Made by a program: the position numbers and the translations under genes. Of a DNA stretch of 47,268 nt, positions 2,419 through 47,268 are shown in pieces. How positions within the stretch are numbered: the first letter of the stretch is position 1; every line of letters starts with the position of its first letter. Below the pieces are notes generated by a model, which was not told the DNA's origin, ran no database searches, and saw only the letters and a list, made by a program, of their open reading frames with translations. The stretch comes from Deltaproteobacteria bacterium (GTDB lineage Bacteria > Desulfobacterota > Desulfobaccia > Desulfobaccales > 0-14-0-80-60-11), in assembly GCA_030655955.1 (NCBI GenBank), contig JAUSOZ010000187.1:1-47268 (forward strand). Reading direction: 5' to 3'.

Positions 2419-2562
2419 CTGACCGGTCTTCCCCTCCCGGGCAAAATTCTTGATTCCGGTTTCAACTTGGTGTGGAGAGAGGCAGTTACCTGCCGACTCC
2501 GCGCCCATGAGTGGCGGCATAATTTAGGCTACGTCGCCTCGCCTGGCAGCCCGGCAGGATAG

Positions 2563-4495: not shown

Positions 4496-4549
4496 ATTAT
4501 CGGCCCTATAACTCAGAGAGTTCTCCTGTCCTGAAAAATCCTTCCGGTA

Positions 4550-4571
4550 GCACAGGCTTTCCAGCCTGTGC
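4550..4571. repeat. REP-like hairpin, family A (GCACAGGCTTTCCAGCCTGTGC)
   Basis: A perfect 8-bp stem with a 6-nt loop. The same motif recurs at 14395, 14437, 15749 and 22390. Confidence 0.8.
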
Positions 4572-4667
4572 GGACTGCATGGCAGGCGCGGAGGCCCGCC
4601 CCACCAACATTTTCATGCTTTACGGGTGGGGCAAAGGCCCATGAGTGACTGCCCTGAAAAGTCTTTC

Positions 4668-4690
4668 GTAGGGTGCGTCCTACGCACCAT
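4668..4690. repeat. REP-like hairpin, family B (GTAGGGTGCGTCCTACGCACCAT)
   Basis: A palindromic GGTGCG..CGCACC core. It recurs at 14661, 14701, 15824, 21262 and 34781. Confidence 0.8.
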
Positions 4691-4725
4691 CAATCCAGTT
4701 AAGGCCCGTATCCCGTAGCAGTAAA

Positions 4726-4866
4726 GCGCAGCGCATCCCGCCTTGCCCTCGTTCCCAAGCTCCTGCTTGGGCCATCTGGTGCAATACATAGATGATTCTC
4801 TCGCAAAGCAGGAGCTTTGCCTGCAATGGGGTTCCCAAGCGGGAGCTTGGGAACCAGAAACAAATT
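4726..4866 (-). repeat. Composite ~145-bp repeat unit, copy 1 (inverted relative to copies 2 and 3)
   Basis: The reverse complement reads TTTCTGGTTCCCAAGCTCCCGCTTGGGAACCCCATTGCAGGCAAAGCTCCTGCTTTGCGAGAGAATCAT...CAAGCAGGAGCTTGGGAACGAGGGCAAGGCGGGATGCGCTGCGC. This is nearly the same string as 14204..14347. It contains the GTTCCCAAGC..GCTTGGGAAC hairpins. The stop codon of the adjacent kinase gene lies at its edge. Confidence 0.8.
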
Positions 4867-6256: not shown

Positions 6257-6270
6257 TTTTTCATAGAGCC

Positions 6271-6296
6271 GTGAGCAGTGAGCTGCGAGCAGTTAG
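6271..6296. repeat. REP-like repeat, family D (GAGCAG/AGCTG-type, GTGAGCAGTGAGCTGCGAGCAGTTAG)
   Basis: Related strings built from AGCTNNCAGC-type units occur at 7821, 7958, 21205 and 34806. Confidence 0.55.
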
Positions 6297-6392
6297 GCCC
6301 GCCGCAGTTGATTTTAATGGAGGGCAGGCATTGCCCGCCATCAATGGATTCGCTTCTCTATCGGCCATGGTTAGCGGCCACGAAACGCCGCG

Positions 6393-7817
6393 CTAGCCGC
6401 GGTTTTCCTCTATGGGCCGGGTGCCCCCGTCAGCCGGGGAGGTCTCCTGTAAGGGCAGTTGGATGGTGAAGGTAGCCCCCCGGCCCGGGGTGCTGTCGGC
6501 AAAGAGACAGCCGCCGTGCTCGGTCATGATATTCTGGCAGATGGCCAGCCCCAGTCCGGTGCCCTTTTCCTTGGTGGTGAAATAGGGCTGAAAAATATTG
6601 TCTGCCACCTCCGGCGGCATACCGGCGCCGGTGTCGCTGACGCTGATTTCTGCGTTGGTTCCCGCAACCCGGCTGGTGATGGAGATCTCTCCGCCTGTGG
6701 GCATGGCCTCCACGGCATTCTTCAATAAATTGATCAGCACCCGGTGCACCTGCTTGGGGTCGAAGGCCACGGGCGGCAGCGGCGTTTCTTCCACCCGGCG
6801 CACCTGGATATTATGCTCCTTAAAAGTATCCTGGAACAATTCCAGGGCTTCGTCAACCACCGCCGCGATCTGCCCCGGGCGCTTGACGGTCGCCGGCTGG
6901 CGCACGAAATCCCGCATCTCGGCCACCATTTCCTCCAGGTGACTCACTTCTTCGGCCATGATGGACAATTTTCGGCGGGCCGGGTCGTCAAATCCCGGGG
7001 CCTTGAGAAGCTGCCGGGCAAACCCCCCGATGATGATGAGGGGGTTTTTGATTTCGTGGGCGATGTGGGCCACGGTACTGCCCACTGCGGCCAGGCGTTC
7101 GGCGTTGAGCACCCGGTCTTCCATGGCTTTATATTCGGTAATGTCCCGCATGATGGCGGTAAAATACAGGTTACCCTGAATCTCGGCCACGGAAAAGGAG
7201 ATGCTCAGGGGAAATTCCTGCCCGTCCCGGCGCCGGGCGGTGAGGCGCCGTTGCCGCCCGAGCACGTGGGCCTCCCGGGTGGCCAGATAGCGCCGCAGAT
7301 AGTCCACGTGGACTTCTTGGTAAGGCGGCGGAATAATGAGTTTCAGGTCCTGGCCCAGGGCTTCGGTGCGGGTGTACCCGAACATCTGCTCCGCCCCTTG
7401 GTTGTAACCGATGATGACGTGATCGGAATTGATGGTGATGAGTCCATCGGTGGCGCCCATGATGACGCCGGCGTTGATCTCCTGCTTCTGGCGCAACTCC
7501 TGGAGTTGGCACACCACGGTTTTCAGAAAGCTGGCGGCAGGGCCGGTTACGAGGTTATCCAGCCGGTCCGGGAAAAAATCGTCTATCCCGGCGGTCAGGA
7601 ACTGGCCGTCCAGGATGAGATCGAACCCCTCCGGGTGCAAATCCGGCAGGAGGTTCACGGTCAGGCCAGGGGCCGGGGTTTCGGGTTGGCGGCCGTACAA
7701 GACGAGTTCCACCGGCGGGTAACCTTCCAGGGAGAAGGGCAGCATGACCGCATGGCAGACGAATTCCTGCCCGTTTAAGACGATGGCGATGCGGATGGGT
7801 TTGGGAGCGGCGGTCAT
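6393..7817 (-). CDS. Soluble PAS-domain sensor histidine kinase (paralog 2)
   Basis: Same architecture as 4865..6256 and alignable over its whole length, for example the identical LELFQDTFKEHNIQVRRVEETPLP. The start is set at ATG 7817 (MTAAPKPIRIAIV) by comparison with the paralog's MTSAPKPIRIAIV. The ORF-track start at 7826 is a TTG. Confidence 0.85.
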   Translation of the reverse strand: MTAAPKPIRIAIVLNGQEFVCHAVMLPFSLEGYPPVELVLYGRQPETPAPGLTVNLLPDLHPEGFDLILDGQFLTAGIDDFFPDRLDNLVTGPAASFLKTVVCQLQELRQKQEINAGVIMGATDGLITINSDHVIIGYNQGAEQMFGYTRTEALGQDLKLIIPPPYQEVHVDYLRRYLATREAHVLGRQRRLTARRRDGQEFPLSISFSVAEIQGNLYFTAIMRDITEYKAMEDRVLNAERLAAVGSTVAHIAHEIKNPLIIIGGFARQLLKAPGFDDPARRKLSIMAEEVSHLEEMVAEMRDFVRQPATVKRPGQIAAVVDEALELFQDTFKEHNIQVRRVEETPLPPVAFDPKQVHRVLINLLKNAVEAMPTGGEISITSRVAGTNAEISVSDTGAGMPPEVADNIFQPYFTTKEKGTGLGLAICQNIMTEHGGCLFADSTPGRGATFTIQLPLQETSPADGGTRPIEENRG

Positions 7818-7820
7818 GGT

Positions 7821-7857
7821 CAGCAATGAGCTATCAGCTTTTAGCAGTCAGTTAGCA
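7821..7857. repeat. REP-like repeat, family D
   Basis: CAGCAATGAGCTATCAGCTTTTAGCAGTCAGTTAGCA lies directly upstream of the kinase start. Confidence 0.55.
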
Positions 7858-7957
7858 AGAGTTGGCGAATGGATCATAAAAGGGCGCAATAAAATGCGCC
7901 CCCACATGGTTTAATACCGGGGCGCGGCTTGTCGTGGCCTTAAATTTCACTTTCGCC

Positions 7958-7997
7958 GCTAAAAACTGACTGCTGCAAGCTGACCGCTGCCGGTTAG
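7958..7997. repeat. REP-like repeat, family D
   Basis: GCTAAAAACTGACTGCTGCAAGCTGACCGCTGCCGGTTAG lies directly downstream of the fabF stop. Confidence 0.55.
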
Positions 7998-8000
7998 TTC

Positions 8001-9317
8001 TCAGTCTTCATAGCGTTTGAACACCAGGGCCGCATTGGTGCCGCCGAATCCGAAGGAATTGGACAGGACGTGGCGGATATCGGCAGACCGGGCCTCCCCG
8101 GTGACGATATCGAGCCCGGCACAGTCCGGGTCCAGGTTGTCCAGGTTGATGGTGGGCGGCACCTTCCCGTCCCGGATGGACAGGGCGCAAAGAATGCCTT
8201 CCACCGCCCCGGCGGCGCCCAGCAGGTGGCCGGTCATGGACTTGGTGCCGCTCACCAGCAGCTGTGAGGCGCGATCGCCAAAAATATCTTTCAAAGCCCA
8301 GGTTTCGTTGCGATCGCCCACGGGGGTGGCGGTGGCATGGGGGTTGACGTAATCAATGTCGGCGCAGGTGACGCCACCATCTTTCATGGCCTGCTGAATG
8401 CAGCGCTTGGCGCCCTCCCGATCCGGATCGGTAATGTGGTGGGCATCGCCGGTCATCCCGAAGCCGACGATTTCGGCATAGATATTGGCGTTGCGGGCCA
8501 GGGCGTGGTCCAGTTCCTCCAGTACCAGGATGCCGGCGCCTTCGGACATGACAAAGCCGGAGCGCTTGAGATCAAAGGGACGGCTGGCAGCCTCGGGGTG
8601 GTCATTGTAGCCCACGGCCAGGGCCCCCATGCGGTAAAAGGCCGTCATGGTCAGGATCGTCACCGCGGCCTCAGTACCCCCCGCGGCCATGAGGTCCGCT
8701 TCTCCCATTTGGATGGAGCGGTAGGCCAGGCCGATGGCATGGGCCCCGGCGGCGCAGGCGGTGGACAGGGCAATATTGGGACCCTTGGCTTTAAAGCGGA
8801 TGGAGACGTTGCCCGCGGCCAGGTTGGGAATCATCTTGGGCACCAGGAAGGGGGAAACCCGGCGCACCCCTTCGGCCAGGAGTTTCTGGACCCCATCCTC
8901 CCATGAGCTGACCCCGCCCATGCCACTGGCAATGATCACCCCGGCCCGATACGGGTCCTCCACCTCCAGGTTGAGACCCGAGTCATGCACCGCCTCAACG
9001 CTGGCGGCCAGGGCAAACTGGGTAAAGCGATCGGTGTACTTGATTTGTTTCAAGTCTTCCTTGGTGACTTCTTTTTTGCGGGTCTGCAAAATTTCTTTCA
9101 GATCAAAATGCTCGATGGCCCCGCCGATGATGGGGAAATCCTCCGGAATGCGGTAGCGTTCTACGAGTTCGGGATTAAAGCGGTTCAGGCGTCTTACCCC
9201 GGATTCACCGGCCAGCAACCGCTTCCACACGGTGGGCACATCGAGGCCCAAAGACGTCACCATACCCACGCCGGTGATCACCACCCGCCGCATTCCCATG
9301 GTTTTTGTAAACGACAT
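8001..9317 (-). CDS. fabF: Beta-ketoacyl-ACP synthase II
   Basis: Cys-His-His active-site contexts LSTACAAGAHAIG, NPHATATPVGD and KSMTGHLLGAAG. GGAGAGG sits 9 nt before the ATG at 9317. No acpP or fabG neighbours lie in the window. Confidence 0.9.
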   Translation of the reverse strand: MSFTKTMGMRRVVITGVGMVTSLGLDVPTVWKRLLAGESGVRRLNRFNPELVERYRIPEDFPIIGGAIEHFDLKEILQTRKKEVTKEDLKQIKYTDRFTQFALAASVEAVHDSGLNLEVEDPYRAGVIIASGMGGVSSWEDGVQKLLAEGVRRVSPFLVPKMIPNLAAGNVSIRFKAKGPNIALSTACAAGAHAIGLAYRSIQMGEADLMAAGGTEAAVTILTMTAFYRMGALAVGYNDHPEAASRPFDLKRSGFVMSEGAGILVLEELDHALARNANIYAEIVGFGMTGDAHHITDPDREGAKRCIQQAMKDGGVTCADIDYVNPHATATPVGDRNETWALKDIFGDRASQLLVSGTKSMTGHLLGAAGAVEGILCALSIRDGKVPPTINLDNLDPDCAGLDIVTGEARSADIRHVLSNSFGFGGTNAALVFKRYED

Positions 9318-37768: not shown

Positions 37769-38562
37769 ACTGTCTGCAAAAACGACAGGGCTTCTTCGAC
37801 GCCGGAATTTTCATTCACGATCATGCTGATCGCCCCCACCATGCGACTGGGGTCACGGTGCTGGAAGACATTGCGCCCGATGGATACCCCGGCCCCCCCG
37901 GCCTCGATGGCCCCCTGGACCATCTCCAGAATGTCCCGGTCCGAAGTCATTTTGGGGCCGCCAGCAATGACCACCGGCACCGGGCAGCCGGCCACCACCT
38001 TACGGAACGACTCCACCGAACCGGTGTACGAAACCTTGACGATGTCCGCCCCCAGTTCCGCCCCCAGTCGCGACACATGCATGATCACCTGGGGGTCGTA
38101 TTCATTCTCGATTTTCTCGCCCCGGGGGTACATCATGGCCAACAGCGGCATGCCCCATTCCCGGGCCTGCCGGGAGACCCGGCCCAGATCGGACAGCATC
38201 TCCTGATCGGAGCCGTTCCCCACGTTGACGTGAATGGAGAGGGCGTCCGCCCCCAGCTTGATGGCTTCCTCCACGGTGCACACCAGGGTTTTGGCATTGG
38301 GATGGGGTGACAGTGAGGTGGAAGCCGACAGGTGAATGATCAACCCCACGTCCTTGCCCCGGCGGCGATGGCCGCTGGACACCAGCCCCTTGTGGATCAG
38401 AATGGCATTGGCTCCGCCGCTGGCCACCGCATTGACGGTAGTCTTCATGTCGATGAGGCCTTCAATGGGGCCAACCGTGACGCCGTGATCCATGGGCACG
38501 ATCACCGTGCGCCCCGTGTCCCGGTTCATGATGCGTTCCATACGAATCTGTTTGCCGACCAC
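37765..38562 (-). CDS. 2-amino-3,7-dideoxy-D-threo-hept-6-ulosonate (ADH) synthase, class I aldolase family
   Basis: [53 protein letters not shown] aligns by eye with the N-terminus of the archaeal ADH synthase/DhnA family. The start is set at GTG 38562, preceded by GGGAGGAG. The ORF-track ATG at 38649 would cover the leader terminator. Confidence 0.8.
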
Positions 38563-38617
38563 TTTCTCCTCCCTCGCCGCAGTGCCTGAGAGGGCCTGAG
38601 ACCCCACGGCCGCCGAT

Positions 38618-38653
38618 AAAAAAAGCCGTGGTCGCCTCGCCTGCGCCACGGCT
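38618..38653 (-). terminator. Intrinsic terminator inside the 5' leader of the shikimate operon (attenuator)
   Basis: The minus strand reads AGCCGTGGCGC-AGGCGAG-GCGACCACGGCT followed by seven T (the first T pairs with the 5' A). It ends about 55 nt before the GTG of the first enzyme gene. Confidence 0.7.
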
Positions 38654-38703
38654 TTTAAAAGATTTTTTTTCCTGTGCCTACATTCTTTTAAAAGTCGAGG
38701 CGC
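38643..38703 (-). promoter_or_regulatory. Candidate antiterminator helix
   Basis: GCGCCTCGACTTTTAAAAG (38703..38685, spanning the leader stop codon) pairs at 17 of 19 positions with CTTTTAAAAGCCGTGGCGC (38661..38643). The latter contains the terminator's 5' arm. Confidence 0.55.
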
Positions 38704-38771
38704 ACTCCCGGCCCGGTAAAATAATAATAGCTAAAATAAAAGTTCGGGGTCCGGGACCAGCTGGATTGCAT
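38688..38771 (-). CDS. Aromatic-rich leader peptide (27 aa)
   Basis: ATG 38771 has GAGGAA 11 nt upstream. The product is [27 protein letters not shown], with 7 Phe/Tyr in 8 consecutive codons. It is below the ORF-track length cutoff. Confidence 0.65.
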
Positions 38772-38796
38772 TTTATTGATTTCCTCGACTTTTATA

Positions 38797-38825
38797 ACCC
38801 TAAAATATTCATCTCCCGGTGTCAA
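38797..38825 (-). promoter_or_regulatory. Candidate promoter for the leader/shikimate operon
   Basis: The minus strand has TTGACA, a 17-nt spacer, then TAGGGT. The -10 is poor, so this is low confidence. Confidence 0.25.
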
Positions 38826-38951
38826 TAAAAATTTTTTTGTCTTGACGGTAATTATGATATGCTGAAACTTATGGAGGCGTTGATTGGCTGGGGTTAAAGG
38901 GCCATCGGCGTTTCATGGGTTGGGCAGCCGCCTGCCCAAATTGGCGGGACT

Positions 38952-39542
38952 ATGGAACCCCCCCCCGATCAGCGCAGCTTCATCTGGATTATCGACAACG
39001 CCGATAAGATTGTCCACGTCAACGATAATTGGCTGGCTTTCGCCCGAGAAAACCGCGCGCCCCAATTAATGGCATCCTTGGTCCTGGATCAACCCATCTG
39101 GCGTTTTATTCAGGGGAAGGAAACCAGCTATTTATACCAACAGATTTTCAGCCGGGTCCGCGCCGGCGTCTCCCCGGTCAAATTTCCCTTCCGGTGTGAC
39201 TCCCCCGATTGCCGGCGGTTCATGGAAATGGAACTTGCCTTATTACCCGGCGATGCCATCCAATTCACAGCGCACATGCTCCGGGAGGAATGGCGTGACC
39301 CCGTAGACCTCTTGGATGCCTCCCGGGATAGATCCGGGGAATTCCTGAAAATCTGCAGCTGGTGCAAGAAAATCATTATTCCGGGGCGCAGCTGGGGGGA
39401 GATCGAGGCGGCCATCGCCGCCCTGGACCTCTTTGGCCACCACTCGATGCCCCAGATGACCCACACCATCTGTGATTCTTGCCGCGGTGCTCTCAGCCTG
39501 GAGTTAAGTGAGGAGTCGGGAGAAAAGCCGAATTTCGACTGA
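38952..39542 (+). CDS. Hypothetical PAS-like protein with C-terminal CxxC...CxxC motif
   Basis: A 196-aa ORF. The N-terminal ~110 aa look PAS-like (WIIDNADKIVHVNDNWLAFARE). The tail reads ICSWCKKIIIPGRSWGEI...THTICDSC. Confidence 0.6.
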   Translation: MEPPPDQRSFIWIIDNADKIVHVNDNWLAFARENRAPQLMASLVLDQPIWRFIQGKETSYLYQQIFSRVRAGVSPVKFPFRCDSPDCRRFMEMELALLPGDAIQFTAHMLREEWRDPVDLLDASRDRSGEFLKICSWCKKIIIPGRSWGEIEAAIAALDLFGHHSMPQMTHTICDSCRGALSLELSEESGEKPNFD

Positions 39543-39639
39543 ACGCGACCGCACCAGGCCCAGGCGGGCGGCCGGGCAAGACGCCGGCCTTTGTCCGGCT
39601 GGCTGGCCGGTTCGACCCGGAGACCATGAAGGAGGCGGC

Positions 39640-40278
39640 ATGCCCCGCACCGATGATTATAAGACGGCCCTCGCCCTGGCCGTGGCAGAATTGAAACCCC
39701 TCAACCCCAAGCGCCTGGAAAACCGAACCGGCGCCCAACACTTTGTCGACTCTTCCCAAGAGGGCCTCACCCTGCCCTATTTCGGCCAGGATCGGCGCAT
39801 CACCTGGCCGGAGGTCAGCGTCACCCCGGGCAGCGGCGCCGGCGAAATTTCCCTCCCGGAGCAGATCCTCATCCTCCACTACCTGCTCAAGGCCTCGGGA
39901 GAGCCTCTCACCGGCCGGAGCATCGATTTCCGCCAGGTCCCGGAAGGCGGGTTTTACTGGTCCGCCTTCGTCTCCCGGGCCCAAAAGCCGTTGCTCTCGA
40001 CCTTCGGGTCCGACCTGCCGCTCTACGTCAAGGTGGCGGCAGCCCTGGGGGGAGAACCCCTGGACCTGGGCGATGCCTCCGCCCGGTTTATGGCCTTTCC
40101 CCGGGTGCCCATCACCCATGTCTTGTGGGGCGGAGACGAGGAATTTACCCCCGAGGCCACCATCCTGTTCGATGAAATCATCCCCGGGTATTTCCCCACC
40201 GAGGACATCGCCGCCCTCGCCGGCGCCTCGGTCTACCGCTTGATGGGGGCGGCGCACCAATTCCGGCAGAGCCGCTAA
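39640..40278 (+). CDS. DUF3786-like protein
   Basis: GAAGGAGG lies 5 nt before ATG 39640. The block ILILHYLLKASGEPLTGRSIDFRQVPEGGFYWSAFVSRA matches my recollection of DUF3786. The upstream part of ORF 39508 is an implausible Arg-rich extension. Confidence 0.55.
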   Translation: MPRTDDYKTALALAVAELKPLNPKRLENRTGAQHFVDSSQEGLTLPYFGQDRRITWPEVSVTPGSGAGEISLPEQILILHYLLKASGEPLTGRSIDFRQVPEGGFYWSAFVSRAQKPLLSTFGSDLPLYVKVAAALGGEPLDLGDASARFMAFPRVPITHVLWGGDEEFTPEATILFDEIIPGYFPTEDIAALAGASVYRLMGAAHQFRQSR

Positions 40279-40480
40279 CGGGCCTCCCGGGCTAGCGGTG
40301 CGCCCCAGTTAAATCTTGCAGCAATATTCCCACTTTTTCGACAGGTTTTCCTAGGGGCGGTGCGCTCACCGCCCCGGCCCCTTGGTGATGGCCGGAATTT
40401 AAACGATACTCTCGGGGTGCGCCACCAGGCGGGCACGCCAGTCTCCCGGAATCGGGTAACCGCCTGGCGGGGCGGGGGCC

Positions 40481-40508
40481 TTGCAGAAACCTAAATAATG
40501 GTTATAAT
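40481..40508 (+). promoter_or_regulatory. Candidate sigma70 promoter for ssrA
   Basis: TTGCAG, a 16-nt spacer, then TATAAT. The -10 ends 10 nt before the tmRNA 5' end. Confidence 0.45.
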
Positions 40509-40518
40509 TATATTCAAG

Positions 40519-40865
40519 GGGGGCGTAACGGCTTCGACGTGAATAGAGAACTGTAAGTTGCATGCCGAGGTCCTGTCCGCTCGTTAAACGGGTAGGAAAA
40601 CCATAAGTGCCGACAACTACGGCTACGCTCTAGCCGCTTAAGGCTAGCATCTGGGGCTCGACGCCGGGAGAGGGCCCTGAGATGACGATATCCTGGCAAA
40701 GCTGCCAATAACGCCTGCGGGTTGGCGGACAAAAACTAAGCGGGCTAGCCTCTAAGAATTCTGCCAGCGGAAGTCTTCAGGGGCGAAACTAAAACGCCGG
40801 CTAAGCATGTAGAAGCTTCCAGGGACTATTGGCGGACGCGGGTTCGACTCCCGCCGCCTCCACCA
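40519..40865 (+). ncRNA. ssrA: tmRNA
   Basis: The 5' GGGGGCGTAACGGCTTCGACG and the 3' GGACGCGGGTTCGACTCCCGCCGCCTCCACCA form a tRNA-Ala-like acceptor with a G3-U pair. The tag reading frame GCC GAC AAC TAC GGC TAC GCT CTA GCC GCT TAA (40609..40641) encodes ADNYGYALAA. Confidence 0.95.
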
Positions 40866-40928
40866 TGTTATTGCATTTAATTCAGTTAGTTGCAATAATT
40901 TAGGTGCTCAAAAATTAGGGTCAGAACA

Positions 40929-40962
40929 GGGTCAGGCTTTTAGAGTCTGGCCCATTTTTTTT
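40929..40962 (+). terminator. Rho-independent terminator after ssrA
   Basis: GGGTCAG, an 11-nt loop, CTGGCCC (7 bp including one G-U), then A plus eight T. Confidence 0.6.
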
Positions 40963-41174
40963 CTGAAGATTGTGTTCTTGTTGAAATCGATTGCAACAAC
41001 CCTCTGTGTCAACATGGATGAGACACCCTGGACCAGAAATTACTGTAGCAAGTGTTCGGTCTGAACCTCCTTTGGGGGTGGATTGATCCAGACGGCCTCG
41101 GGCAGCGGCAGGGCGACTGGCGGTTGCAGGACTTTTTGGCTCGAATGCAGGTTCATGAAATGTCAGCCAGGCCT

Positions 41175-42128
41175 TTATATACTCTTTTCTAAATACTTGA
41201 CGCAGGGTGTCCAGGATTTCAGGGGCCGTTGGCAGCCCTTGCAGGAGGTGGCTCCCTGGCGCTGTTTGCAATAACTGTTGACCACATATTCGAAAATCCT
41301 GGCATTACGGATGGCGAAGGCGATTTCTTCGGCGATGGAATCCAGCAGCAGGCGCTCGTCATCGGTAAAGGGCTCGCCGCCGGATTTGTTGACAACTTCC
41401 ATGAGGCCGATTTTCTCCTCACCCGCGGTCAACGGGATGGCTATCATATTTCTGGTGACCACCCCGGATTGGGAATCGATCTGGTCGTAAAACCGGGGGT
41501 CTTGCCCGACGCCGTTAATCACTTCAGATTTCTGGTTTTGCAGGACGGAACCGGCAATACCTTTATCAGCCGGGAAGGTCGTGGTTTGCAGCGCTTCCTG
41601 GGAAGGCCCTCCCAGGCTGTAAAACTCGAGGTTCACTCCGTCCTCGTCCAACAGCAGGATAGAAGCCTCTTCGGCCGAGACGGTCTCCATAACGGTGGGC
41701 AAGACAGCTCCCAGGAGTTCGGGCAGGTCCAGGCATTGGGCCACCATGGAACTAATCGTCAGGTAGGTATTGAGGTGCCTGGTCTGCTTCATAAGTTCCC
41801 GGTGCATGGTCTCCAGGCGTAAGCGGCTCTCTCTGAGACGCTGTAAAATGAAGCCGATGAAACCCCAAACTACCCCGCCAAACAGGCCAAAGATGAGTAA
41901 CATGGGCCACATGTGCCAATGGAAGCTGTGGGAAAAGGCTCCCTTTATATCCAACGGGGTGCCCGAATTAACAAAGTTGTAAAAACCGTCAACCAGCATC
42001 GACAGCGGGTGGCCGATGAAGATTCCCACCGCGATGCCAAACAGGATGCCGATCCAGGGATAGAACCACGTTCTTTCCTGGGAGCTTGGGGTTTCCAGGC
42101 CCATCGGCTCGGACTGCTTAGGATTCAT
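41175..42128 (-). CDS. 2-TM membrane protein with cytoplasmic GAF domain and Cys4 tail
   Basis: Two hydrophobic segments (WIGILFGIAVGIFIGHPLSMLV and PMLLIFGLFGGVVWGFIGFIL), a coiled linker, a GAF-like domain (ASILLLDEDG...IAIPL...GLMEVVNK), and the tail C-X8-C-X2-C-X9-C. Its start overlaps the upstream gene by 11 nt. Confidence 0.7.
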   Translation of the reverse strand: MNPKQSEPMGLETPSSQERTWFYPWIGILFGIAVGIFIGHPLSMLVDGFYNFVNSGTPLDIKGAFSHSFHWHMWPMLLIFGLFGGVVWGFIGFILQRLRESRLRLETMHRELMKQTRHLNTYLTISSMVAQCLDLPELLGAVLPTVMETVSAEEASILLLDEDGVNLEFYSLGGPSQEALQTTTFPADKGIAGSVLQNQKSEVINGVGQDPRFYDQIDSQSGVVTRNMIAIPLTAGEEKIGLMEVVNKSGGEPFTDDERLLLDSIAEEIAFAIRNARIFEYVVNSYCKQRQGATSCKGCQRPLKSWTPCVKYLEKSI

Positions 42129-42720
42129 GCGGCTCCTTGACTGCCTCGGCCTTCAGACGGGCTTCCAGTTCCTTTTTCAGGTCGATCATCTGAGTGCGCC
42201 ACCCATCGATGTATTGTGCGTGGTCTATTTTACTGACGTTTTCTAAAGACACAATGACCTCGTCGATTTCATGGGAGGCCCGGTGGATGAGTTCCAGTTG
42301 GTGCCTGAGCTCCGGATCGGTGATATGCTTTTGCAGATGCTGGCTGAATCCGCCGATGACCAGGTTGGCGTTGCGAATATGGTGCGCCAGGGTGACCATG
42401 AGCTCACGCACGGTATTCAGGGCCGCTTGGCGGCGCTGGGTCTCCAACTGCTCCTGCGCCAAGCGCTCTTTTTGCAGGTACCAGGCCCCCAAACCGAAGC
42501 CAGCCGCCCCTCCCATAAGGCTGAAGGCCAGACCCATGACCACCATCTCGGGGCTAAAGGTGGCTTGGACCTGGCGGGCCCAGAGAGAGAAGTCCCAGGA
42601 CCCGTGCGGATGGTGTGGCCCCAGGATATAGGCCAACATGGCGAAAGGGTGCATCAACAGGTAGCCTACGACTATCCCTGCCAGGGTAAACCATATTAAC
42701 CGCGCAGACCCCATATGCAC
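42118..42720 (-). CDS. 2-TM membrane protein with HisKA-like dimerisation domain only (no ATPase domain)
   Basis: The TM module resembles that of 41175..42128 (IWFTLAGIVVGYLLMHPFAMLA and MVVMGLAFSLMGGAAGFGLGAWYL). The H-box-like TLAHHIRNANLVIGGFSQHL compares with HIAHEIKNPLLIIGGFAQQL in the kinases at 4865 and 6393. The protein ends about 60 aa later with no N/G1/G2 boxes. Confidence 0.65.
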   Translation of the reverse strand: MHMGSARLIWFTLAGIVVGYLLMHPFAMLAYILGPHHPHGSWDFSLWARQVQATFSPEMVVMGLAFSLMGGAAGFGLGAWYLQKERLAQEQLETQRRQAALNTVRELMVTLAHHIRNANLVIGGFSQHLQKHITDPELRHQLELIHRASHEIDEVIVSLENVSKIDHAQYIDGWRTQMIDLKKELEARLKAEAVKEPHES

Positions 42721-42758
42721 CTATGACTTTAAAAAGGTCCTGGAATATGGACCTTGAA

Positions 42759-43151
42759 TCAGTGCTGATGTTCCCCCTGTTTTTTTATAGTATTAAGCTG
42801 CTGCTGCATTCCCTGGAGCCGCTGTTGGTGTTGCTGCTCCATTTGCGGAGTCATGGAGCCGCCCATTTGCTGCTTCATCTGGCCCAACTGGTTCATCATG
42901 TCCTGCATCTGCTGTTGGTGCGCCGGGGTCATATGCCCCTGGCCCATCATCTTTTGCATCTCACCCATCATTTGGTTCATCATGTCCCTGTTGTGCTGGC
43001 CCATCATGTGCTGACCGGAGCCCATCATGCCACCACTGGACCCGTGCATGCCGCTCCCGTGCATCCCGCCGCCGGGGTGCTCCTGGGCCGCCAGAAACCC
43101 GGGCAAGGCGAGCCCAACTACGGCCACGATAATCATAATTTTCCGCCTCAT
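42759..43151 (-). CDS. Secreted Met/His/Gln-rich protein (130 aa)
   Basis: GGAGGAAG lies before ATG 43151. The signal peptide is MRRKIMIIVAVVGLALPGFLAA. By my count, the mature part has 22 Met in ~108 residues. It also has GMHGSGMHG and MTPAHQQQM / MTPQMEQQH motifs. Confidence 0.7.
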   Translation of the reverse strand: MRRKIMIIVAVVGLALPGFLAAQEHPGGGMHGSGMHGSSGGMMGSGQHMMGQHNRDMMNQMMGEMQKMMGQGHMTPAHQQQMQDMMNQLGQMKQQMGGSMTPQMEQQHQQRLQGMQQQLNTIKKQGEHQH

Positions 43152-43353
43152 AACTTCCTCCTTCGGTTCGACTGGCAAGATTATCTTCACCAGGCGTTGG
43201 TTATCGCTGGCAACTAAAAGGATATCTCCCTTCGGAACCTGACGGCATCAAATATCAGGGCAGAGACAGCGCGGCTGCACCTGTCTCTCACCGTCATTTT
43301 AGGGCAGCCTTGATGCACGAACGGTTGCCGTGCTCAGGCGCGGCAAGAGGAGA

Positions 43354-43536
43354 CTAAGAGGAGCAGCAAGACTTTCCCCCGGGTTTCCCCTTCGCCGGCG
43401 CTGACAGGAACTTTTGGCGACAGTTGTCGCTGCAAAAGTAGAACGTCGTTCCATCGCGTTCGACGTGGAGAGCGGTTGCTTCGTCCACGGTCATTCCGCA
43501 GATGGGGTCTTTGGTCACGGATTTCGATTCTTTCAT
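43354..43536 (-). CDS. YHS-domain (TRASH-type) metal-binding protein (60 aa)
   Basis: DPICGMTVDEATALHVERDGTTFYFCSDNCRQKF is the YHS pattern seen at the N-termini of copper P-type ATPases. The C-terminus ends in KSCCSS. AAGGAG lies 7 nt before ATG 43536. Confidence 0.75.
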   Translation of the reverse strand: MKESKSVTKDPICGMTVDEATALHVERDGTTFYFCSDNCRQKFLSAPAKGKPGGKSCCSS

Positions 43537-43591
43537 GGTCATGCTCCTTGCTTGGTTAACAGTTCACTTCGTTGCCGCGACGAGCGCTGAA

Positions 43592-43717
43592 TTATTTTTT
43601 GGACTGCTTGCTGATAACGACGACTAGCAGGACTACCGCCAGGATGCCGACCACCGTCCAGACCCACATCCCTCCGCCCGCCCATCCACCCATCCATCCG
43701 CCAGTTTGGTTCATCAT
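43592..43717 (-). CDS. Gly/Trp/Met-rich single-TM peptide (41 aa)
   Basis: MMNQTGGWMGGWAGGGMWVWTVVGILAVVLLVVVISKQSKK. Only this part of ORF 43592..43930 looks protein-like. Its ATG overlaps the TGA of the preceding small ORF (ATGA). Confidence 0.5.
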   Translation of the reverse strand: MMNQTGGWMGGWAGGGMWVWTVVGILAVVLLVVVISKQSKK

Positions 43718-43839
43718 AAAGAGCCTTTGGTTACGCTGCGACTGACCCACCACCGGGCAAACCAGAATGTGAGCGGAGGCAGCAGCGTCATTTGGAGTAG
43801 AGGCCACAGGCCCGCGCCAAGCATGGACACCACGGGCAT
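43714..43839 (-). CDS. Hypothetical 41-aa hydrophobic peptide (not in ORF track)
   Basis: MPVVSMLGAGLWPLLQMTLLPPLTFWFARWWVSRSVTKGSL. Its stop overlaps the next start. It is in frame with the ORF at 43849..44025, separated by TAA plus three codons. Confidence 0.3.
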   Translation of the reverse strand: MPVVSMLGAGLWPLLQMTLLPPLTFWFARWWVSRSVTKGSL

Positions 43840-43848
43840 GCGCCCCGC

Positions 43849-44025
43849 TTACGACCAGCGCCCGGCGGCCAGCGCCGCATAAGCCAGCCCCAGAACAGCC
43901 GCCGGGGCGTAAATGTTCCAGCGGCCGCACAAGCCCCAGCCCAGTCCGCCAGCGGCCAGCGCGCCCGCCGATTTTTCGTCAATGTCCTTCGTACCATTGC
44001 GGATTAATCTTAATTTTATCCGCAT
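43849..44025 (-). CDS. Hypothetical 58-aa glycine-zipper-like membrane peptide (not in ORF track)
   Basis: MRIKLRLIRNGTKDIDEKSAGALAAGGLGWGLCGRWNIYAPAAVLGLAYAALAAGRWS. It has GC-rich third positions, unlike the two listed ORFs in other frames, which translate to Arg/Trp/Pro-rich junk. No SD is visible. Confidence 0.3.
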   Translation of the reverse strand: MRIKLRLIRNGTKDIDEKSAGALAAGGLGWGLCGRWNIYAPAAVLGLAYAALAAGRWS

Positions 44026-44116
44026 GATTAGGTTAACCGGTTATGGATTTAAAGGGTCGACTCCGGCGGAGACTGGTATGCTGCTCTCCTTGCCAATATC
44101 CGCCTGGTTTATTAGC

Positions 44117-44551
44117 TTACTTTTTAGGATGTTCTGGTTTTTCCTGCTGCTCCATCATCTTCATCATGGGGCATGATTTCATCATGTCAGCCATTTTCTT
44201 TTGGTCTTCGGGGCTCATCTTGCCTTGGCTCATCTGTTCTTTCATCTTCATCATGGGGCATGATTTCATCATGTCGGCCATTTTCTTTTGGTCTTCAGGG
44301 CTCATCTTGCCTTCGCTCATCTGTTCCATCATCTTCGTCATGGGGCATGATTTCATCATGTCAGCCATTTTCTTTTGGTCTTCGGGGCTCATCTTGCCTT
44401 GGCCCATCTGTTCCATCATTTGGGGCATTTGCCCCTGCATCATCATACCTTGGCCCATTTTGCCTTGTCCGGCGCCAGGCGTTTGCGCCAGCGCCATTCC
44501 GGAAAAAGCGAGTAACACTACTACGAGAGTTGCCATGGTAAATCGTCTCAT
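44117..44551 (-). CDS. Secreted Met-rich protein with three 29-aa tandem repeats (144 aa)
   Basis: GGAGGA lies 6 nt before ATG 44551. The signal peptide is MRRFTMATLVVVLLAFSGMALA. By my count, the mature part has 32 Met in ~122 residues. The repeat unit is GKMSPEDQKKMADMMKSCPM(T/M)KM(M/K)EQMS. Confidence 0.75.
   Translation of the reverse strand: MRRFTMATLVVVLLAFSGMALAQTPGAGQGKMGQGMMMQGQMPQMMEQMGQGKMSPEDQKKMADMMKSCPMTKMMEQMSEGKMSPEDQKKMADMMKSCPMMKMKEQMSQGKMSPEDQKKMADMMKSCPMMKMMEQQEKPEHPKK
44147..44398. repeat. 87-bp tandem repeat, ~3 copies, in frame within the Met-rich gene
   Basis: TCATCATGGGGCATGATTTCATCATGTC recurs at 44161, 44248 and 44335 (TCGTCATGGGG in the third copy). Only a few substitutions separate the copies. 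Confidence 0.85.
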
Positions 44552-44614
44552 AATTTCCTCCAAGTTTAAATTAGGTAAATGTCCTATTGAGTTAGGCCAT
44601 TAAGTAAAAATTAA

Positions 44615-44821
44615 GAACCTCCGGAGTGCTTGTCAAGTTGCGCTAACGATGGTTTAGGGGGCCAGGTGCCGACGCCAGCTTCCATGATCTTGCTGGGTCC
44701 CGGCCTGCTAGCCTGGGTGGGATGGCGGCGCTTCAGGAGAAGCCAAGCCAGGGCTGGGGTGGACGCGGGCGTAAGGGGGCCTCCTCGCCCCAGCGACCTA
44801 TCGAAATACGCCAAAGCTTAA
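44615..44821 (+). pseudogene. Possible remnant of a PEP-CTERM sorting domain
   Basis: The frame open from 44615 reads ...GGQVPTPASMILLGPGLLAWVGWRRFRRSQ.... This is a PEP-like motif, a hydrophobic stretch and a basic cluster. No upstream protein body exists and 26 extra codons follow. Confidence 0.3.
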
Positions 44822-44891
44822 GTGAACAGCATTGCCCTTAAGCGGGGAGGGATAAGAGTAATTTTCGCTCACCGACCCAACCAGCGGATCA

Positions 44892-45851
44892 TCATCCGAA
44901 CCGGCCGGTGATGTACTCTTCCGTCTTTTTTTGCGAGGGGTTGGTAAAGATTTGCTGGGTTTCGCCAAACTCGATGATATGTCCCTGAAAGAAGAAGGCG
45001 GTGAAATCGGAGATCCGGGCGGCCTGCTGCATGTTGTGGGTGACAATGACGATGGAATAGCTGGCTTTGAGCCGGTTGATCAGTTCCTCGATCTTGGCGG
45101 TGGCGATGGGGTCGATAGCGGAGGTGGGTTCGTCCATGAGCAAGACTTCCGGCTCCACCGCCAGGGCCCGGGCGATGCACAACCGCTGCTGCTGCCCCCC
45201 GGAAAGCGCCGTACCCGGGCGGTGCAGGAAATCTTTCACTTCGTCCCACAAGGCGGCCCGGCTCAGGGCTTCCTCCACGCGATCCGCCATTTCGCCTTTT
45301 TTCATGGAATAATGCAGCTTCAGGCCGTAGGCCACATTATCGAAGACGCTCATGGGAAAGGGGGTGGGCTTCTGGAAGATCATGCCGATCTTGCGCCGCA
45401 GTTCCATGATGTCATAGTGGGGCTCGATGATATTGACGCCATCCAACAAGACTTCCCCGGTGGCCCGCTGGTCGCGGTAGAGTTGATAAATCCGGTTGTA
45501 AATCCGCAGATGGGTGGATTTGCCGCAACCGGAAGGGCCGATGATGGCGGTCACCCGGTGCTCGGCGATATCCAGGTTGTTGTCGAATAAGGCCTGGTTG
45601 TCGCCATAGAAAAAATTGAGCTGACGGGTGGCAACTTTACTGGTCAAACCCAGACGCGCCAGAAGCGCCTCGGATTCTATGCCGGTCTCGTCTTGACTGG
45701 CTGCTACCGGGAGTTTTTCAACTACCTGTATGGGAGTAGCCGGCTTGCCCTGGAGTTGGGGGCGCACCACCTCGCGGGGAGCAAGATTCGACTTACGTCT
45801 GAATGGGGTCAACCGCCCAATAAGGGGGAGCGTGAGATTATGGGATGACAT
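44892..45851 (-). CDS. pstB: Phosphate ABC transporter ATP-binding protein
   Basis: [18 protein letters not shown], Walker [37 protein letters not shown], and a C-terminal [14 protein letters not shown] lies 8 nt before ATG 45851. It carries a ~60-aa N-terminal extension relative to E. coli PstB. Confidence 0.9.
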
Positions 45852-45870
45852 GGTCAGGATCTCCGTTTAT

Positions 45871-46716
45871 TCAAACTTTTTTCTCCCGCAACAAAAAGCG
45901 TGCCGAGACCGTTAAGATGAGGACTCCAAAAGTAATCAGCAGCGAGGCCCCCCAGGCCTTCTGCTGCCAGTCCGGATAAGGCGACATGGCGTAATTGTAA
46001 ATCGTCACGGTGAGGTTGGGAGTGGGCTCATTCAAGGAGCCGAACCAGTAGGGGCTGTTGAGGGCGGTAAACAGCAACGGCGCAGTCTCCCCACTCACCC
46101 GGGCCACGGCCAGGAGGATGCCGGTGATGAGCCCGCTTTTGGCAGCCCGGAACACAATGGCCAGGGTGACTTTCCACCGCGGCGCCCCTAAAGCCAGGGC
46201 CGATTCCCGCAAGGTATTGGGCACCAGCCGCAGCATGTCTTCGGTGGTGCGGGTAATCACCGGCAGCATCAGGATGGCCAGGGCCAGGGCCCCGGCATAA
46301 CCGGAAAAGTGGCCCAGGGGCACCACCACCAGGGTATAGGCAAAGATCCCCACGATGATGGAAGGCATGCCCATGAGGACGTTGGCGGAAAAGCGGCTGT
46401 AGTCACCCACTTTGGAGTCGTCGCTGAATTCGGCCAGATAAATTCCGGCCATCAGCCCCACGGGAACGGCAATTACCGTGGCCACCGCGGTGAGCGCCAG
46501 GGTGCCGACGATGGCATTGGCCAGCCCGCCGCCCATGATCCCCGGCGGGGTGGGCAACTGGGTGAAAAACGCCAGATTGAGGGCTCCCAGGCCCCGGGCC
46601 AAAACCACGTAAAGGATCCAAAACAGGATCAAGATTCCCAGGAGCGCCGCAGCCCCGGCCCAAATACTCACCGCCAGGTTGGTGAGGCGGCGTCCGGTAG
46701 GCGGCCTTAGTTTCAT
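45871..46716 (-). CDS. pstA: Phosphate ABC transporter permease PstA
   Basis: A 281-aa protein with six TM segments and the EAA-like loop ESALALGAPRWKV. Its position between pstC and pstB fits. A 4-nt overlap links it to the upstream gene. Confidence 0.9.
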   Translation of the reverse strand: MKLRPPTGRRLTNLAVSIWAGAAALLGILILFWILYVVLARGLGALNLAFFTQLPTPPGIMGGGLANAIVGTLALTAVATVIAVPVGLMAGIYLAEFSDDSKVGDYSRFSANVLMGMPSIIVGIFAYTLVVVPLGHFSGYAGALALAILMLPVITRTTEDMLRLVPNTLRESALALGAPRWKVTLAIVFRAAKSGLITGILLAVARVSGETAPLLFTALNSPYWFGSLNEPTPNLTVTIYNYAMSPYPDWQQKAWGASLLITFGVLILTVSARFLLREKKV

Positions 46717-47268
46717 AACCCCACACTCCAGGCGCGGTACATACGGCGCAGCATCATCTGGGAAACCACCTGCACCAGATAGGTGATGATATAGAGCACC
46801 AACCCCAAGGCCACCAAAGAACCGACGTAGAGCGGTTCGGTGGCTTCACTGAATTCATTGGCCAGGGTGGAGGCGATGGTGTTGCCGGGGGCAAAGAGGG
46901 AAGCAGAAAGGCGGTGGGCGTTGCCGATGACAAAGGTGACTGCCATGGTCTCACCCAGGGCTCTGCCTAAACCCATGAACACCGCGCCGATGATGCCCAC
47001 CAGGCCGTAGGGGATGGTCACCTTATAGGTTACCTCCCAGGTGGTAGCCCCCATGCCGAAGGCCGATTCCTTGACGACCGGAGGCACCAATTGAAACACA
47101 TCCCGGGTGATGGCGCTGATGAAGGGCAGCACCATGAAGGCCAGGATGATCCCGGCGGTGAGCATGCCGATTCCCATGGGCGGACCTTGAAACAGGGGGA
47201 GAAATCCCAGCGTCTGGCCCATTAATGGCTGGACGTAGTGGGCCATAAAGGGGGCGAAGATAAATAGC
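46713..47268 (-). CDS. pstC: Phosphate ABC transporter permease PstC (5' end outside the window)
   Basis: The frame is open to the window edge (…LFIFAPFMAHYVQPLMG…). The permease loop is ESAFGMGATTWEV. The listed ATG at 47246 is probably internal. Confidence 0.85.
   Translation of the reverse strand, partial: LFIFAPFMAHYVQPLMGQTLGFLPLFQGPPMGIGMLTAGIILAFMVLPFISAITRDVFQLVPPVVKESAFGMGATTWEVTYKVTIPYGLVGIIGAVFMGLGRALGETMAVTFVIGNAHRLSASLFAPGNTIASTLANEFSEATEPLYVGSLVALGLVLYIITYLVQVVSQMMLRRMYRAWSVGL

Follow-up and report, generated by a model that had tools for sequence, protein, structure and literature searches.

SilE is a disordered periplasmic Met/His 'molecular sponge' of Ag/Cu, and it is encoded, like PcoE, beside a two-component sensor, a CusCFBA-type resistance-nodulation-division (RND) pump and a P1B ATPase (PMC5008109). 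YHS domains have been proposed as copper sensors and occur on CopA-type ATPases (PMC4626032). In group A Streptococcus, a FasC protein with transmembrane (TM) segments and DHp only suffices when it is paired with FasB, and the DHp histidine is essential (PMC12675982). Here, we describe a gene cluster in a contig of 47,268 nucleotides (nt) from a Deltaproteobacteria bacterium (JAUSOZ010000187.1, assembly GCA_030655955.1; the whole contig is the window referred to below), in which two Met-rich secreted proteins, called MetRich1 and MetRich2, a YHS protein and two membrane sensors are encoded side by side. Judging from sequence comparisons, this stretch is rather probably the accessory-plus-sensor half of a Cu(I)/Ag(I) homeostasis cassette of uncultivated Desulfobaccales/Syntrophobacterales-type bacteria, truncated here.

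All genes of the cluster are on the minus strand, bounded by pstB and the transfer-messenger RNA (tmRNA) gene ssrA. From the pstB side, the features are as follows (aa, amino acids; L064 is one of the related loci, numbered with L, that are introduced below):

44552-44783, minus strand: upstream (promoter/leader) region of MetRich1, conserved in L064 by blastn
44551-44120, minus strand: MetRich1, 144 aa, with a Sec-type signal peptide ending in ALA, followed by Q
43792-44061, no strand assigned: window-specific GC-rich spacer, absent from L064
43717-43595, minus strand: 41-aa Gly/Trp/Met-rich TM peptide (MMNQTGGWMGGWAGGGMWVWTVVGILAVVLLVVVISKQSKK), a candidate small membrane protein
43542/43536-43357, minus strand: YHS protein, 60-62 aa (Pfam YHS)
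43151-42762, minus strand: MetRich2, a secreted Met/His/Gln-rich protein of 130 aa
42729-42755, minus strand: terminator- or attenuator-like hairpin (fold energy and conservation)
42720/42714-42121, minus strand: DHp-only protein with two TM helices (2-TM), 198-200 aa (HisKA sub-threshold; AtoS DHp region)
42128-41178, minus strand: 2-TM GAF protein, 317 aa (Pfam GAF)
41156-41118, within 41040-41156, minus strand: remnant of a histidine-kinase gene, its first 13 codons (MNLHSSQKVLQPP)

The GAF gene overlaps the DHp-only gene by 11 nt. An earlier note, made from the letters of this DNA, had listed six main open reading frames (ORFs), all of which we recovered at the same positions and with exactly the Met counts it gave (32 of 122 mature residues in MetRich1, 22 of 108 in MetRich2); the three repeats of MetRich1, the YHS domain, the GAF domain with its Cys4 tail and the HisKA/DHp-only membrane protein were likewise as described. 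Profile searches on each product, which that note had suggested, placed YHS and GAF above their cut-offs and HisKA and Metal_resist below. It was also right that the window holds no P-type ATPase, RND pump, multicopper oxidase, MerR-type regulator or response regulator: none was found by a Pfam scan of ~40 further ORFs or by tblastn with CusCBA, kinase, P-ATPase-neighbour and receiver queries, and tblastn of the window found no CusCBA, kinase catalytic domain, MamS/MamX-like protein or receiver remnants. CusCBA-type pump genes, of which not even remnants were found in the window, are present beside the orthologous cassette in related loci.

We compared the cluster to a set of about 60 related loci. 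A scan of GTDB with the DHp-only protein yielded 10 loci, all in Desulfobaccales, Syntrophobacterales or 'Deltaproteobacteria' metagenome-assembled genomes (MAGs), and a scan of metagenomes with the GAF protein yielded 39 further loci. We found that the order MetRich2, DHp-only, then kinase and GAF protein recurs in ~50 loci, with kinase and GAF gene in either order, so the neighbourhood that the earlier note proposed looking for in other genomes does occur elsewhere. Around MetRich2 homologues, the layout is cusC-cusB-cusA, MetRich2, a ~200-aa DHp-only protein and a ~359-aa kinase whose gene overlaps the DHp-only gene; this kinase consists of the membrane module of the GAF protein followed by DHp and HATPase_c (53-55 bits for HATPase_c in the paralogous kinases of relatives). 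The sensor set usually comes immediately behind cusA, and the cassette is directly downstream of cusC-cusB-cusA in at least 20 loci. MetRich2 adjoins the sensor genes in the window and in ~30 loci, its gene lies between cusA and the sensor genes in many related loci, and it is a conserved core accessory protein of the cassette. Every GAF-gene locus of sufficient extent also carries a paralogous 2-TM histidine kinase; one locus, L013, had appeared to be a second example without a kinase and was rejected when relaxed tblastn showed the start of a kinase in its last 350 nt.

The exporters in these loci point to copper or silver. The adjacent CusA proteins are 54-55% identical to E. coli CusA, conserve M573/M623/M672 and the D405/E939/K984 relay, and have a CusA-type TM4 motif (A-I-G-x-M-V-D-A) rather than the CzcA-type signature. 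L011, L020 and L065 encode, close by, a P-type ATPase that has a CPC motif and a YHS or HMBD domain at its N-terminus; its gene directly follows that of the kinase in L020 and L065. Cassette loci also encode MamS/MamX-like proteins and secreted proteins of the YHS and Gly/Met-rich types. Thus, the earlier note's proposal of a Cu(I)/Ag(I)-type metal module gains support by association with CusCBA and CPC-type P1B ATPases, the metal role itself being deduced from these neighbours rather than shown. Its further suggestion of a module designed without a transporter is not supported in that form, since orthologous clusters adjoin CusCBA or a CPC-type ATPase and the copy in the window is truncated.

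We considered that the cassette might sense or buffer something other than Cu/Ag, such as oxidants, for which the Met-rich proteins would be sacrificial methionine sinks, or a different soft metal (Hg, Cd, Zn). Met-rich surfaces are able to scavenge oxidants, heavy-metal efflux RND pumps and P1B ATPases are known for divalent metals too, and L011 encodes a YHS-fused pyridine-nucleotide disulfide oxidoreductase, while L018 has a rubrerythrin beside an orphan DHp-only gene. However, the adjacent RND pumps combine the CusA-type TM4 motif with the three-Met site and are not CzcA-type, the adjacent ATPases carry CPC, and the Pfam listings and scans of the loci examined revealed no methionine sulfoxide reductase. 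We therefore give this explanation little credence.

The parallel to CusRS-CusCFBA is close in several respects, in that the cassette of the relatives is joined to orthologous CusCBA genes whose product shares the metal site, and includes a membrane kinase and a receiver protein. In contrast to CusS, the sensor of the relatives has no large periplasmic domain (a ~27-aa loop instead) and is split into three paralogous subunits; the regulator of the relatives, compared to that of CusRS, is receiver-only, and the window itself has no pump, kinase or regulator. No CusF was detected in the loci mapped, where a Met-rich helical protein occupies the accessory slot.

The closest relatives are four contigs from one study, with 90-95% nt identity to the cluster in the window. 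They hold the following genes:

L064: MetRich1 (96% aa identity, three repeats), the 41-aa peptide, YHS, MetRich2, a decayed DHp-only gene, the GAF protein and the kinase
L020: the 41-aa peptide, YHS, MetRich2, a truncated DHp-only gene, the GAF protein, the kinase, a YHS/HMBD protein and a P-type ATPase
L065: a MetRich1 remnant, MetRich2, an intact DHp-only protein (90% aa identity), the GAF protein, the kinase, YHS and an 835-aa HMBD ATPase with a CPC motif
L066: the GAF protein and the kinase

L065 shows the complete subtype, with the DHp-only protein, GAF protein, kinase, YHS protein and HMBD-ATPase all present. Homology of the window to all four relatives stops at position 41118, 57 nt past the stop codon of the GAF gene (blastn and alignments). 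The start of the kinase gene is still there (MNLHSSQKVLQPP in the window, compared to MNLHSSPKVLQPP in L064), a remnant that was missed by tblastn and was detected by nucleotide alignment to the close relatives; beyond 41118, the frame continues into unrelated sequence (a 38-aa ORF), which is followed by the ssrA terminator. Because 13 kinase codons remain and homology to the four relatives ends abruptly at this point, we conclude that the absence of the kinase is a local truncation; on the simplest reading of the alignments, the kinase and the ATPase following it were lost here by deletion or rearrangement. The two kinase-less sensors that the earlier note took as a design are thus what is left of a larger set, given the kinase in the relatives and the codons that remain in the window. 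With the kinase cut after codon 13 and the ATPase gone, the locus would not be able to autophosphorylate on its own.

The same end point would be expected if the contig were chimeric at ~41118 and the real genome had a kinase and a P1B ATPase after the GAF gene. The window is one whole MAG contig, homology to the four relatives ends at exactly the same point, and each relative has other sequences around the cassette, with insertion sequence (IS) elements nearby; such regions tend to break assemblies. On the other hand, neither an N-run nor a repeat showed up at the junction (sequence read and repeat scan), the upstream end of the cassette likewise joins unique chromosomal sequence (pstB), and the relatives have undergone independent rearrangements (e.g., the DHp-only deletions), so genuine structural change is common in the cassette. 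A chimera is, in our view, quite unlikely, and we retain the view that the truncation is real.

We also observed a reciprocal loss among these loci, in that the DHp-only gene has decayed in close relatives with a kinase, the window has an intact DHp-only gene and has lost the kinase, and L065 keeps both. The sites of DHp-only decay are at 5619-5764 in L020, 7916-8363 in L064, 375-520 in L037 and 570-716 in L041, with boundaries that differ between L020 and L064.

MetRich1 is 26% Met in its mature part, with 3 Cys, and contains a 29-aa unit (EQMxQGKMSPEDQKKMADMMKSCPMxKMx) that is repeated three times in tandem; the underlying 87-nt direct repeats are 92-95% identical. A Shine-Dalgarno (SD) sequence, GGAGGA, lies 7 nt upstream of its start. 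The L064 copy, 96% identical, has the same position in the cluster, and the region upstream of MetRich1 is 94% identical to L064 by blastn over 44783-44061, with homology ending at 44783, short of pstB; no promoter was called upstream of MetRich1 by a consensus scan. We found 19 homologues of this family, each with 1-3 units, in which the number of repeats changes by whole 29-codon units only and the ratio of nonsynonymous to synonymous substitutions (dN/dS) is 0.09-0.19. Family members with 1-2 units occur in other metagenomes (L001 10001-10258; L003 2321-2728; L004 138-671; L005 1852-2385).

MetRich2, which has only 18 indexed homologues, carries 10 His along with its 22 Met, including a GMHGSGMHG stretch, and contains the motifs HMTPAHQ and SMTPQMEQ. 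Met61, Met65 and Met69 are invariant in the alignment of homologues, with i/i+4/i+8 spacing, and dN/dS relative to the relatives is 0.26-0.44. In an AlphaFold2 (AF2) model with a predicted local distance difference test (pLDDT) score of 68, a disordered segment containing Gly, Met and His (residues 18-47) precedes helices at 45-70, 76-96 and 102-128 (pLDDT ~80-88). The two Met-rich families are related to each other (hhalign 98.4% probability, E 5e-15, a score helped in part by signal peptide and composition), with a common core of QG(H/K)M(T/S)PxxQxxMxDMM that is visible at the DNA level too (repeat family D2). Between MetRich2 and the sensor genes is a hairpin, AAGGUCC-N8-GGACCUU followed by UUUUU (-16.4 kcal/mol, z -2.5), which is kept in five relatives (L020 5586-5608, L037 341-363, L042 289-311, L064 7867-7889, L065 9191-9213). 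With this hairpin after its gene, the secreted protein could be far more abundant than the sensors.

The earlier note had itself raised the question of whether the Met-rich ORFs are untranslated low-complexity DNA. Long opposite-strand ORFs do run over both genes, as is typical of low-complexity sequence, but both Met-rich ORFs have signal peptides and strong SD sequences, their dN/dS is 0.09-0.44 across homologues, they hold a conserved position beside sensors or pumps, and the repeat number of MetRich1 always varies in whole 29-codon units. We find it hardly credible that these are not genes.

The nearest functional analogues of the Met-rich proteins, by analogy of composition and setting, would be SilE and PcoE, which are likewise small (~140 aa), secreted, Met/His-rich and part-disordered with helical propensity. 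The signal peptide, the 20-26% Met and the disordered 18-47 segment of the model are compatible with a SilE-like metal sponge. There is no sequence homology to SilE/PcoE in Pfam or NCBIfam, and the proteins differ in several ways: the MxxH/HxxM motif, which SilE has in the repeated forms MxxHxxxxxHxxM and HxxMxxxHxxM (PMC5008109), is found once in MetRich2 and not at all in MetRich1; Met content is ~3-fold higher here; the (M)(T/S)PxxQ motif is present; and MetRich1 has Met and CP(M) with almost no His.

We also weighed whether the cluster is instead a general envelope-stress or chaperone module, in which divergent CpxP/Spy/ZraP-type chaperones feed back on the sensors without any role in Cu/Ag. 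The earlier note had seen a likeness of the MSPEDQ, MTPAHQ and MTPQMEQ motifs to this family. The likeness is real at the level of the motifs: MTPAHQ and MTPQMEQ of MetRich2 and the three MSPEDQ of MetRich1 align in order with the CpxP motifs (pairwise E 0.012 and 0.16), and HMTPAHQQQMQDMMNQ and SMTPQMEQQHQQRLQ are colinear with LTEHQRQQMRDLMQQ of CpxP and a second CpxP motif segment. Similar to CpxP, Spy and ZraP, these would be helical periplasmic proteins, and they are encoded beside sensor genes, as cpxP and zraP are, with two (L/M)TPxxQ-type motifs in the same order, and the helical model of MetRich2 fits a chaperone; ZraP moreover has a Gly/Met/His-rich tail and binds metal. MetRich1 also matches Pfam Metal_resist (PF13801) weakly, at 15.1 bits (E 0.026), about half the cut-off of 29.2, while MetRich2 has no match. 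Membership in the family, however, failed every profile and fold test. We found no CpxP/Spy/ZraP member in the profile search of PDB, probabilities of only 1.5% and 3.1% with hhalign against E. coli CpxP/ZraP/Spy, and no CpxP, Spy or ZraP structure with Foldseek on the MetRich2 model (best E 3.9). Homology to these proteins was thus rejected by Pfam, NCBIfam, the PDB profile search, hhalign and Foldseek, with only the short (M/L)(T/S)PxxQ motif similar, and even the motifs are spaced differently (~70 aa apart in CpxP compared to ~27 aa here). Since a Met content of 20-26% is foreign to Spy or CpxP, and the linkage to CusCBA and CPC-type ATPases is tight and repeated, we regard a stress module without a metal role as unlikely and favor metal-binding accessory proteins.

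The sensor proteins of the cassette are members of one family. The DHp-only protein has two TM helices, whose outer loop (GPHHPHG) is short and rich in His, and a DHp hairpin that contains the H-box TLAHHIRN; it scores 22.7 bits with HisKA, below the cut-off of 26.9, and matches the DHp region of AtoS (E 3.8e-8). Its His113 is invariant in 4 orthologues, and its dN/dS relative to the relatives is 0.20-0.29. It is a distant paralogue of the TM and DHp part of the kinases (24-35% identity, E down to 1e-9). The GAF protein matches GAF, GAF_2 and GAF_3 (56.9, 53.4 and 44.4 bits) over residues 133-275 and ends in a C-x8-C-x2-C-x9-C tail, in which the four Cys are invariant in four orthologues (dN/dS 0.12-0.35). 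Its membrane module is that of the kinases (ERTWFYPWIG...GHPLSML...HSFHWHMWPM), with the first ~115 residues ~70% identical to them and the cytoplasmic part swapped; the AF2 model of this protein came from a shallow alignment and had a pLDDT of 55 (<50 in much of the GAF domain, residues 148-226, and in the Cys tail). Neither sensor in the window has a HATPase_c domain by Pfam. Thus, the sequence comparisons show the DHp-only protein, the kinase and the GAF protein to be three paralogues.

No Pfam family covers the membrane module, and it is rare. A word-indexed homologue search gave mainly fragments; an exhaustive HMMER search, which was more useful, found 41 clusters among 1.84 billion representatives, mostly ~350-360-aa kinases, with a few that have NarL-type DHp, GAF or Cys-rich tails, and also recovered a DHp-only-type protein (P0078). 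The outer loops of the sensors are short (~25 residues) and His-rich (GPHHPHG; HSFHWHMWP), which presumably makes the module comparable to intramembrane-sensing kinases that rely on accessory proteins. All five main genes tested (MetRich1, YHS, MetRich2, DHp-only and GAF) are under purifying selection, as judged by dN/dS.

The YHS protein contains a bona fide YHS domain and is cytoplasmic. It matches PF04945 at 54.2 bits (cut-off 30.3; E 1.4e-14) over profile positions 2-45 of 47, retains the ligand set D12, C15, C37 and C41, in agreement with the Asp/Cys set described in PMC4626032, and ends in KSCCSS. It is 92-94% identical at the aa level in L020 and L064, with a dN/dS of 0.27. The same Asp/Cys3 set is found in the YHS/TRASH modules at the N-termini of CopA-type ATPases and in the YHS adenylyl cyclase of Mycobacterium phlei, and YHS-ATPases and HAMP-cyclases are both found in the loci of the relatives. 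In contrast to those modules, the protein in the window stands alone, is cytoplasmic and has an additional CC pair at its C-terminus; in some relatives, a secreted 103-aa YHS protein takes its place.

Taken together, the complete cassette would have four parts: secreted Met-rich helical proteins, one or two in number (MetRich2 and, in some cases, MetRich1), often with a YHS protein; three paralogous two-helix membrane proteins that share one rare module, namely the DHp-only protein, the DHp+ATPase kinase and the GAF protein with its Cys4 tail; in some loci, a receiver-only response regulator; and an exporter, for which there are two arrangements, CusCBA immediately upstream or a YHS/HMBD CPC-type P1B ATPase immediately downstream. 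We propose that the Met-rich proteins bind periplasmic Cu(I)/Ag(I) through thioether and imidazole ligands and act as a buffer or chaperone, as SilE/PcoE do, with Met61/65/69 of MetRich2 predicted to line one helix face, and that they may report metal load to the His-rich outer loops, as ZraP/CpxP do to their kinases. The DHp-only subunit might pair with the kinase subunit and be phosphorylated in trans (compare FasC/FasB), the GAF subunit might modulate the sensor complex, perhaps on sensing a cyclic nucleotide or a thiol/metal cue from the cytoplasm, and the small YHS protein would handle cytoplasmic Cu(I). In the window, the Met-rich and YHS proteins probably still act as metal buffers, and the two sensors are either decaying or reliant on a kinase from another locus of the genome.

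The comparison to FasB/FasC/FasA has limits. Two kinase-like membrane proteins form a heterodimer there, as a DHp-only protein and its full kinase paralogue might here, but sequence, organism and signal are unrelated, FasC naturally keeps its kinase domain, and there is neither a GAF subunit nor a link to metals. More tentatively, and with more doubt than assent on our part, the three two-helix proteins and the Met-rich protein may form an undescribed multi-subunit Cu(I)/Ag(I) sensor, in which a rare module bearing His and Met detects metal at or inside the membrane, the Met-rich protein is a co-sensor, phosphorylation occurs in trans between unlike subunits, GAF takes in a second signal (possibly a cyclic nucleotide from the HAMP-cyclases), and parts persist, and perhaps work, without the kinase.

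Several observations weigh against the reading of the cluster as half of a Cu(I)/Ag(I) cassette, or against parts of it. Metal specificity is deduced from the neighbouring genes and the composition of the proteins. MetRich1 contains no more than 1 His, and the MxxH/HxxM motifs of SilE are few in both Met-rich proteins; MetRich1-family genes also occur elsewhere in a non-metal context (GATase / 60-aa ORF / MetRich1 / DUF3192 lipoprotein). Distant members do not always keep the His of the 'HP' motif in the membrane module. Three close relatives with an intact kinase (L020, L064, L037/L041) have a decayed DHp-only gene, which makes the necessity of the DHp-only subunit doubtful. Orphan DHp-only genes with no adjacent kinase were found in two distant MAGs (L016, L018), so the lack of a neighbouring kinase need not cripple a DHp-only protein, and, together with the loss of DHp-only genes where the kinase is kept, these orphans indicate that the subunits are not strictly interdependent. 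Finally, the MAG contig might have been misassembled at 41118.

Literature on Met-rich/SilE-type proteins, YHS and copper, LTXXQ, Desulfobaccales and copper, and DHp-only kinases offered analogies and no description of the cassette. The cassette thus appears to be uncharacterised and built from rare unannotated families, although the theme of a metal-responsive sensor, a periplasmic accessory protein and an exporter is already known. If our reading is right, anaerobic Thermodesulfobacteriota run CusCBA/CopA-type exporters with components that lack characterised relatives, namely a 20-26% Met periplasmic family with variable repeat number and a rare input module reused with DHp, kinase, GAF and other outputs. 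It would also mean a new sensor architecture for metal homeostasis, with a natural histidine kinase split into unlike subunits. For annotation, 'hypothetical' Met-rich ORFs by cusA are real genes, and the sensors without kinase or pump in the window reflect truncation and provide no evidence for a transporter-free resistance strategy.

The cluster is flanked by two genes outside the cassette:

44892-45851: pstB (Pfam scan of ORFs)
40519-40865, plus strand: tmRNA gene with the tag ADNYGYALAA (ARAGORN and Rfam, 190 bits)

As the tmRNA gene is on the plus strand, it is convergent with the cluster; it is a neighbour and boundary marker outside the cassette, and it has its own terminator at 40929-40953. 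The cassette is flanked by pstB and ssrA in the window, by BcrAD-type genes in L020, by CLC/CBS genes in L064, and by IS elements in L065 and L011. Since these flanks change from relative to relative, the cassette is mosaic. In L065, transposase genes lie upstream of the cassette (DDE_Tnp_1 and IstB_IS21 by Pfam, 1929-3236 and 4323-6864), and in L011, a transposase-like ORF, judged by eye, is beside it (524-1621).

The earlier note had pointed to AT-richness and to tmRNA genes as hot spots for island insertion, and we considered that the cluster might be a genomic island inserted at the tmRNA gene. The cluster does adjoin ssrA, its GC is somewhat below that of the upstream core genes, and the changing context and the transposases near the cassette in L011 and L065 would suit an island. 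However, the 26-nt ssrA 3' end occurs only once in the window (with up to 3 mismatches), no integrase or recombinase was found among the scanned window ORFs, and ssrA, which converges on the cluster, keeps its own terminator. Base composition does not argue for foreign origin either: the lowest GC (0.45-0.48) coincides exactly with MetRich1, in which ATG, AAR and CAA are the predominant codons, and the dip results from the Met/Lys/Gln codon usage of this gene; over the remaining cluster GC is 0.54-0.64, similar to pstB. We regard an island at ssrA as very unlikely.

The smaller reading frames of the cluster fared unequally. The 41-aa single-TM peptide is present and conserved in L020 (88% aa) and L064 (93% aa), in both directly before the YHS gene, and differs from L020 by 3 nt changes in 114 nt, compared to ~9% divergence elsewhere. 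No family match was found in Pfam or NCBIfam. Since its start codon is not conserved in L020 and dN/dS is uninformative, it is a candidate gene only. The two possible tiny hydrophobic ORFs of the earlier note (43849-44025 and 43714-43839) did not hold up: they are mostly inside an insert of 270 nt (44061-43792) that is specific to the window, with only ~100 nt at this place in the closest relative, L064, and they have no tblastn match in any fetched locus, nor has the spacer a match in Rfam. We therefore treat them as non-coding, as the whole spacer (43792-44061) probably is. A scan of 38000-47268 with Rfam (E up to 0.1) gave only the tmRNA and sub-threshold permuted-tmRNA noise, and a consensus promoter/terminator scan called no more sites than in shuffled sequence.

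Other genes recur near the cassette in related loci. A secreted Gly/Met-rich protein (MamS/MamX-type, from precomputed Pfam matches) often follows the sensor genes (L006 10195-10710; L009 3214-3750; L014 7458-7946; L015 9693-10214; also L033, L043 and L051) and is absent from the window; it is an uncharacterised candidate periplasmic metal-binding protein. The response regulator of the cassette is receiver-only (Pfam Response_reg alone, 135-176 aa, with no DNA-binding domain) and on the opposite strand (L006 10860-11327, minus strand; L009 4057-4587; L014 14406-14813; L015 10789-11280). Genes for HAMP adenylate/guanylate cyclases recur as well (L007 8043-9713; L056 2428-3510; L064 22-1866; a fragment in L011, 9527-10057), and in L007/L008 a degenerate remnant of the GAF-protein gene (7744-8046) lies directly before the cyclase. 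The HAMP-cyclases together with the GAF subunit suggest a cyclic-nucleotide branch of signalling.

The other ORFs of the window are housekeeping (shikimate pathway, CTP synthase, KsgA, pstBAC, two PAS kinases and Tad pilus genes; Pfam scan, ~40 ORFs). The two PAS-HisKA-HATPase_c kinases are tandem paralogues on the minus strand (4865-6256 and 6393-7826) and lack a response regulator in their vicinity. No other complete kinase is encoded in the window, and both match the DHp-only protein weakly by tblastn (E 6.6e-6 and 0.003). A 196-aa protein with no Pfam match (38952-39542, plus strand) is encoded in the AT-richest patch of that end of the window (GC 0.48-0.51), and its C-terminus has the form CxxC...CxxC (KICSWCKKI...ICDSCRG). 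A similar Cys-rich tail is joined to the rare membrane module in one distant member of the sensor family (P0087).

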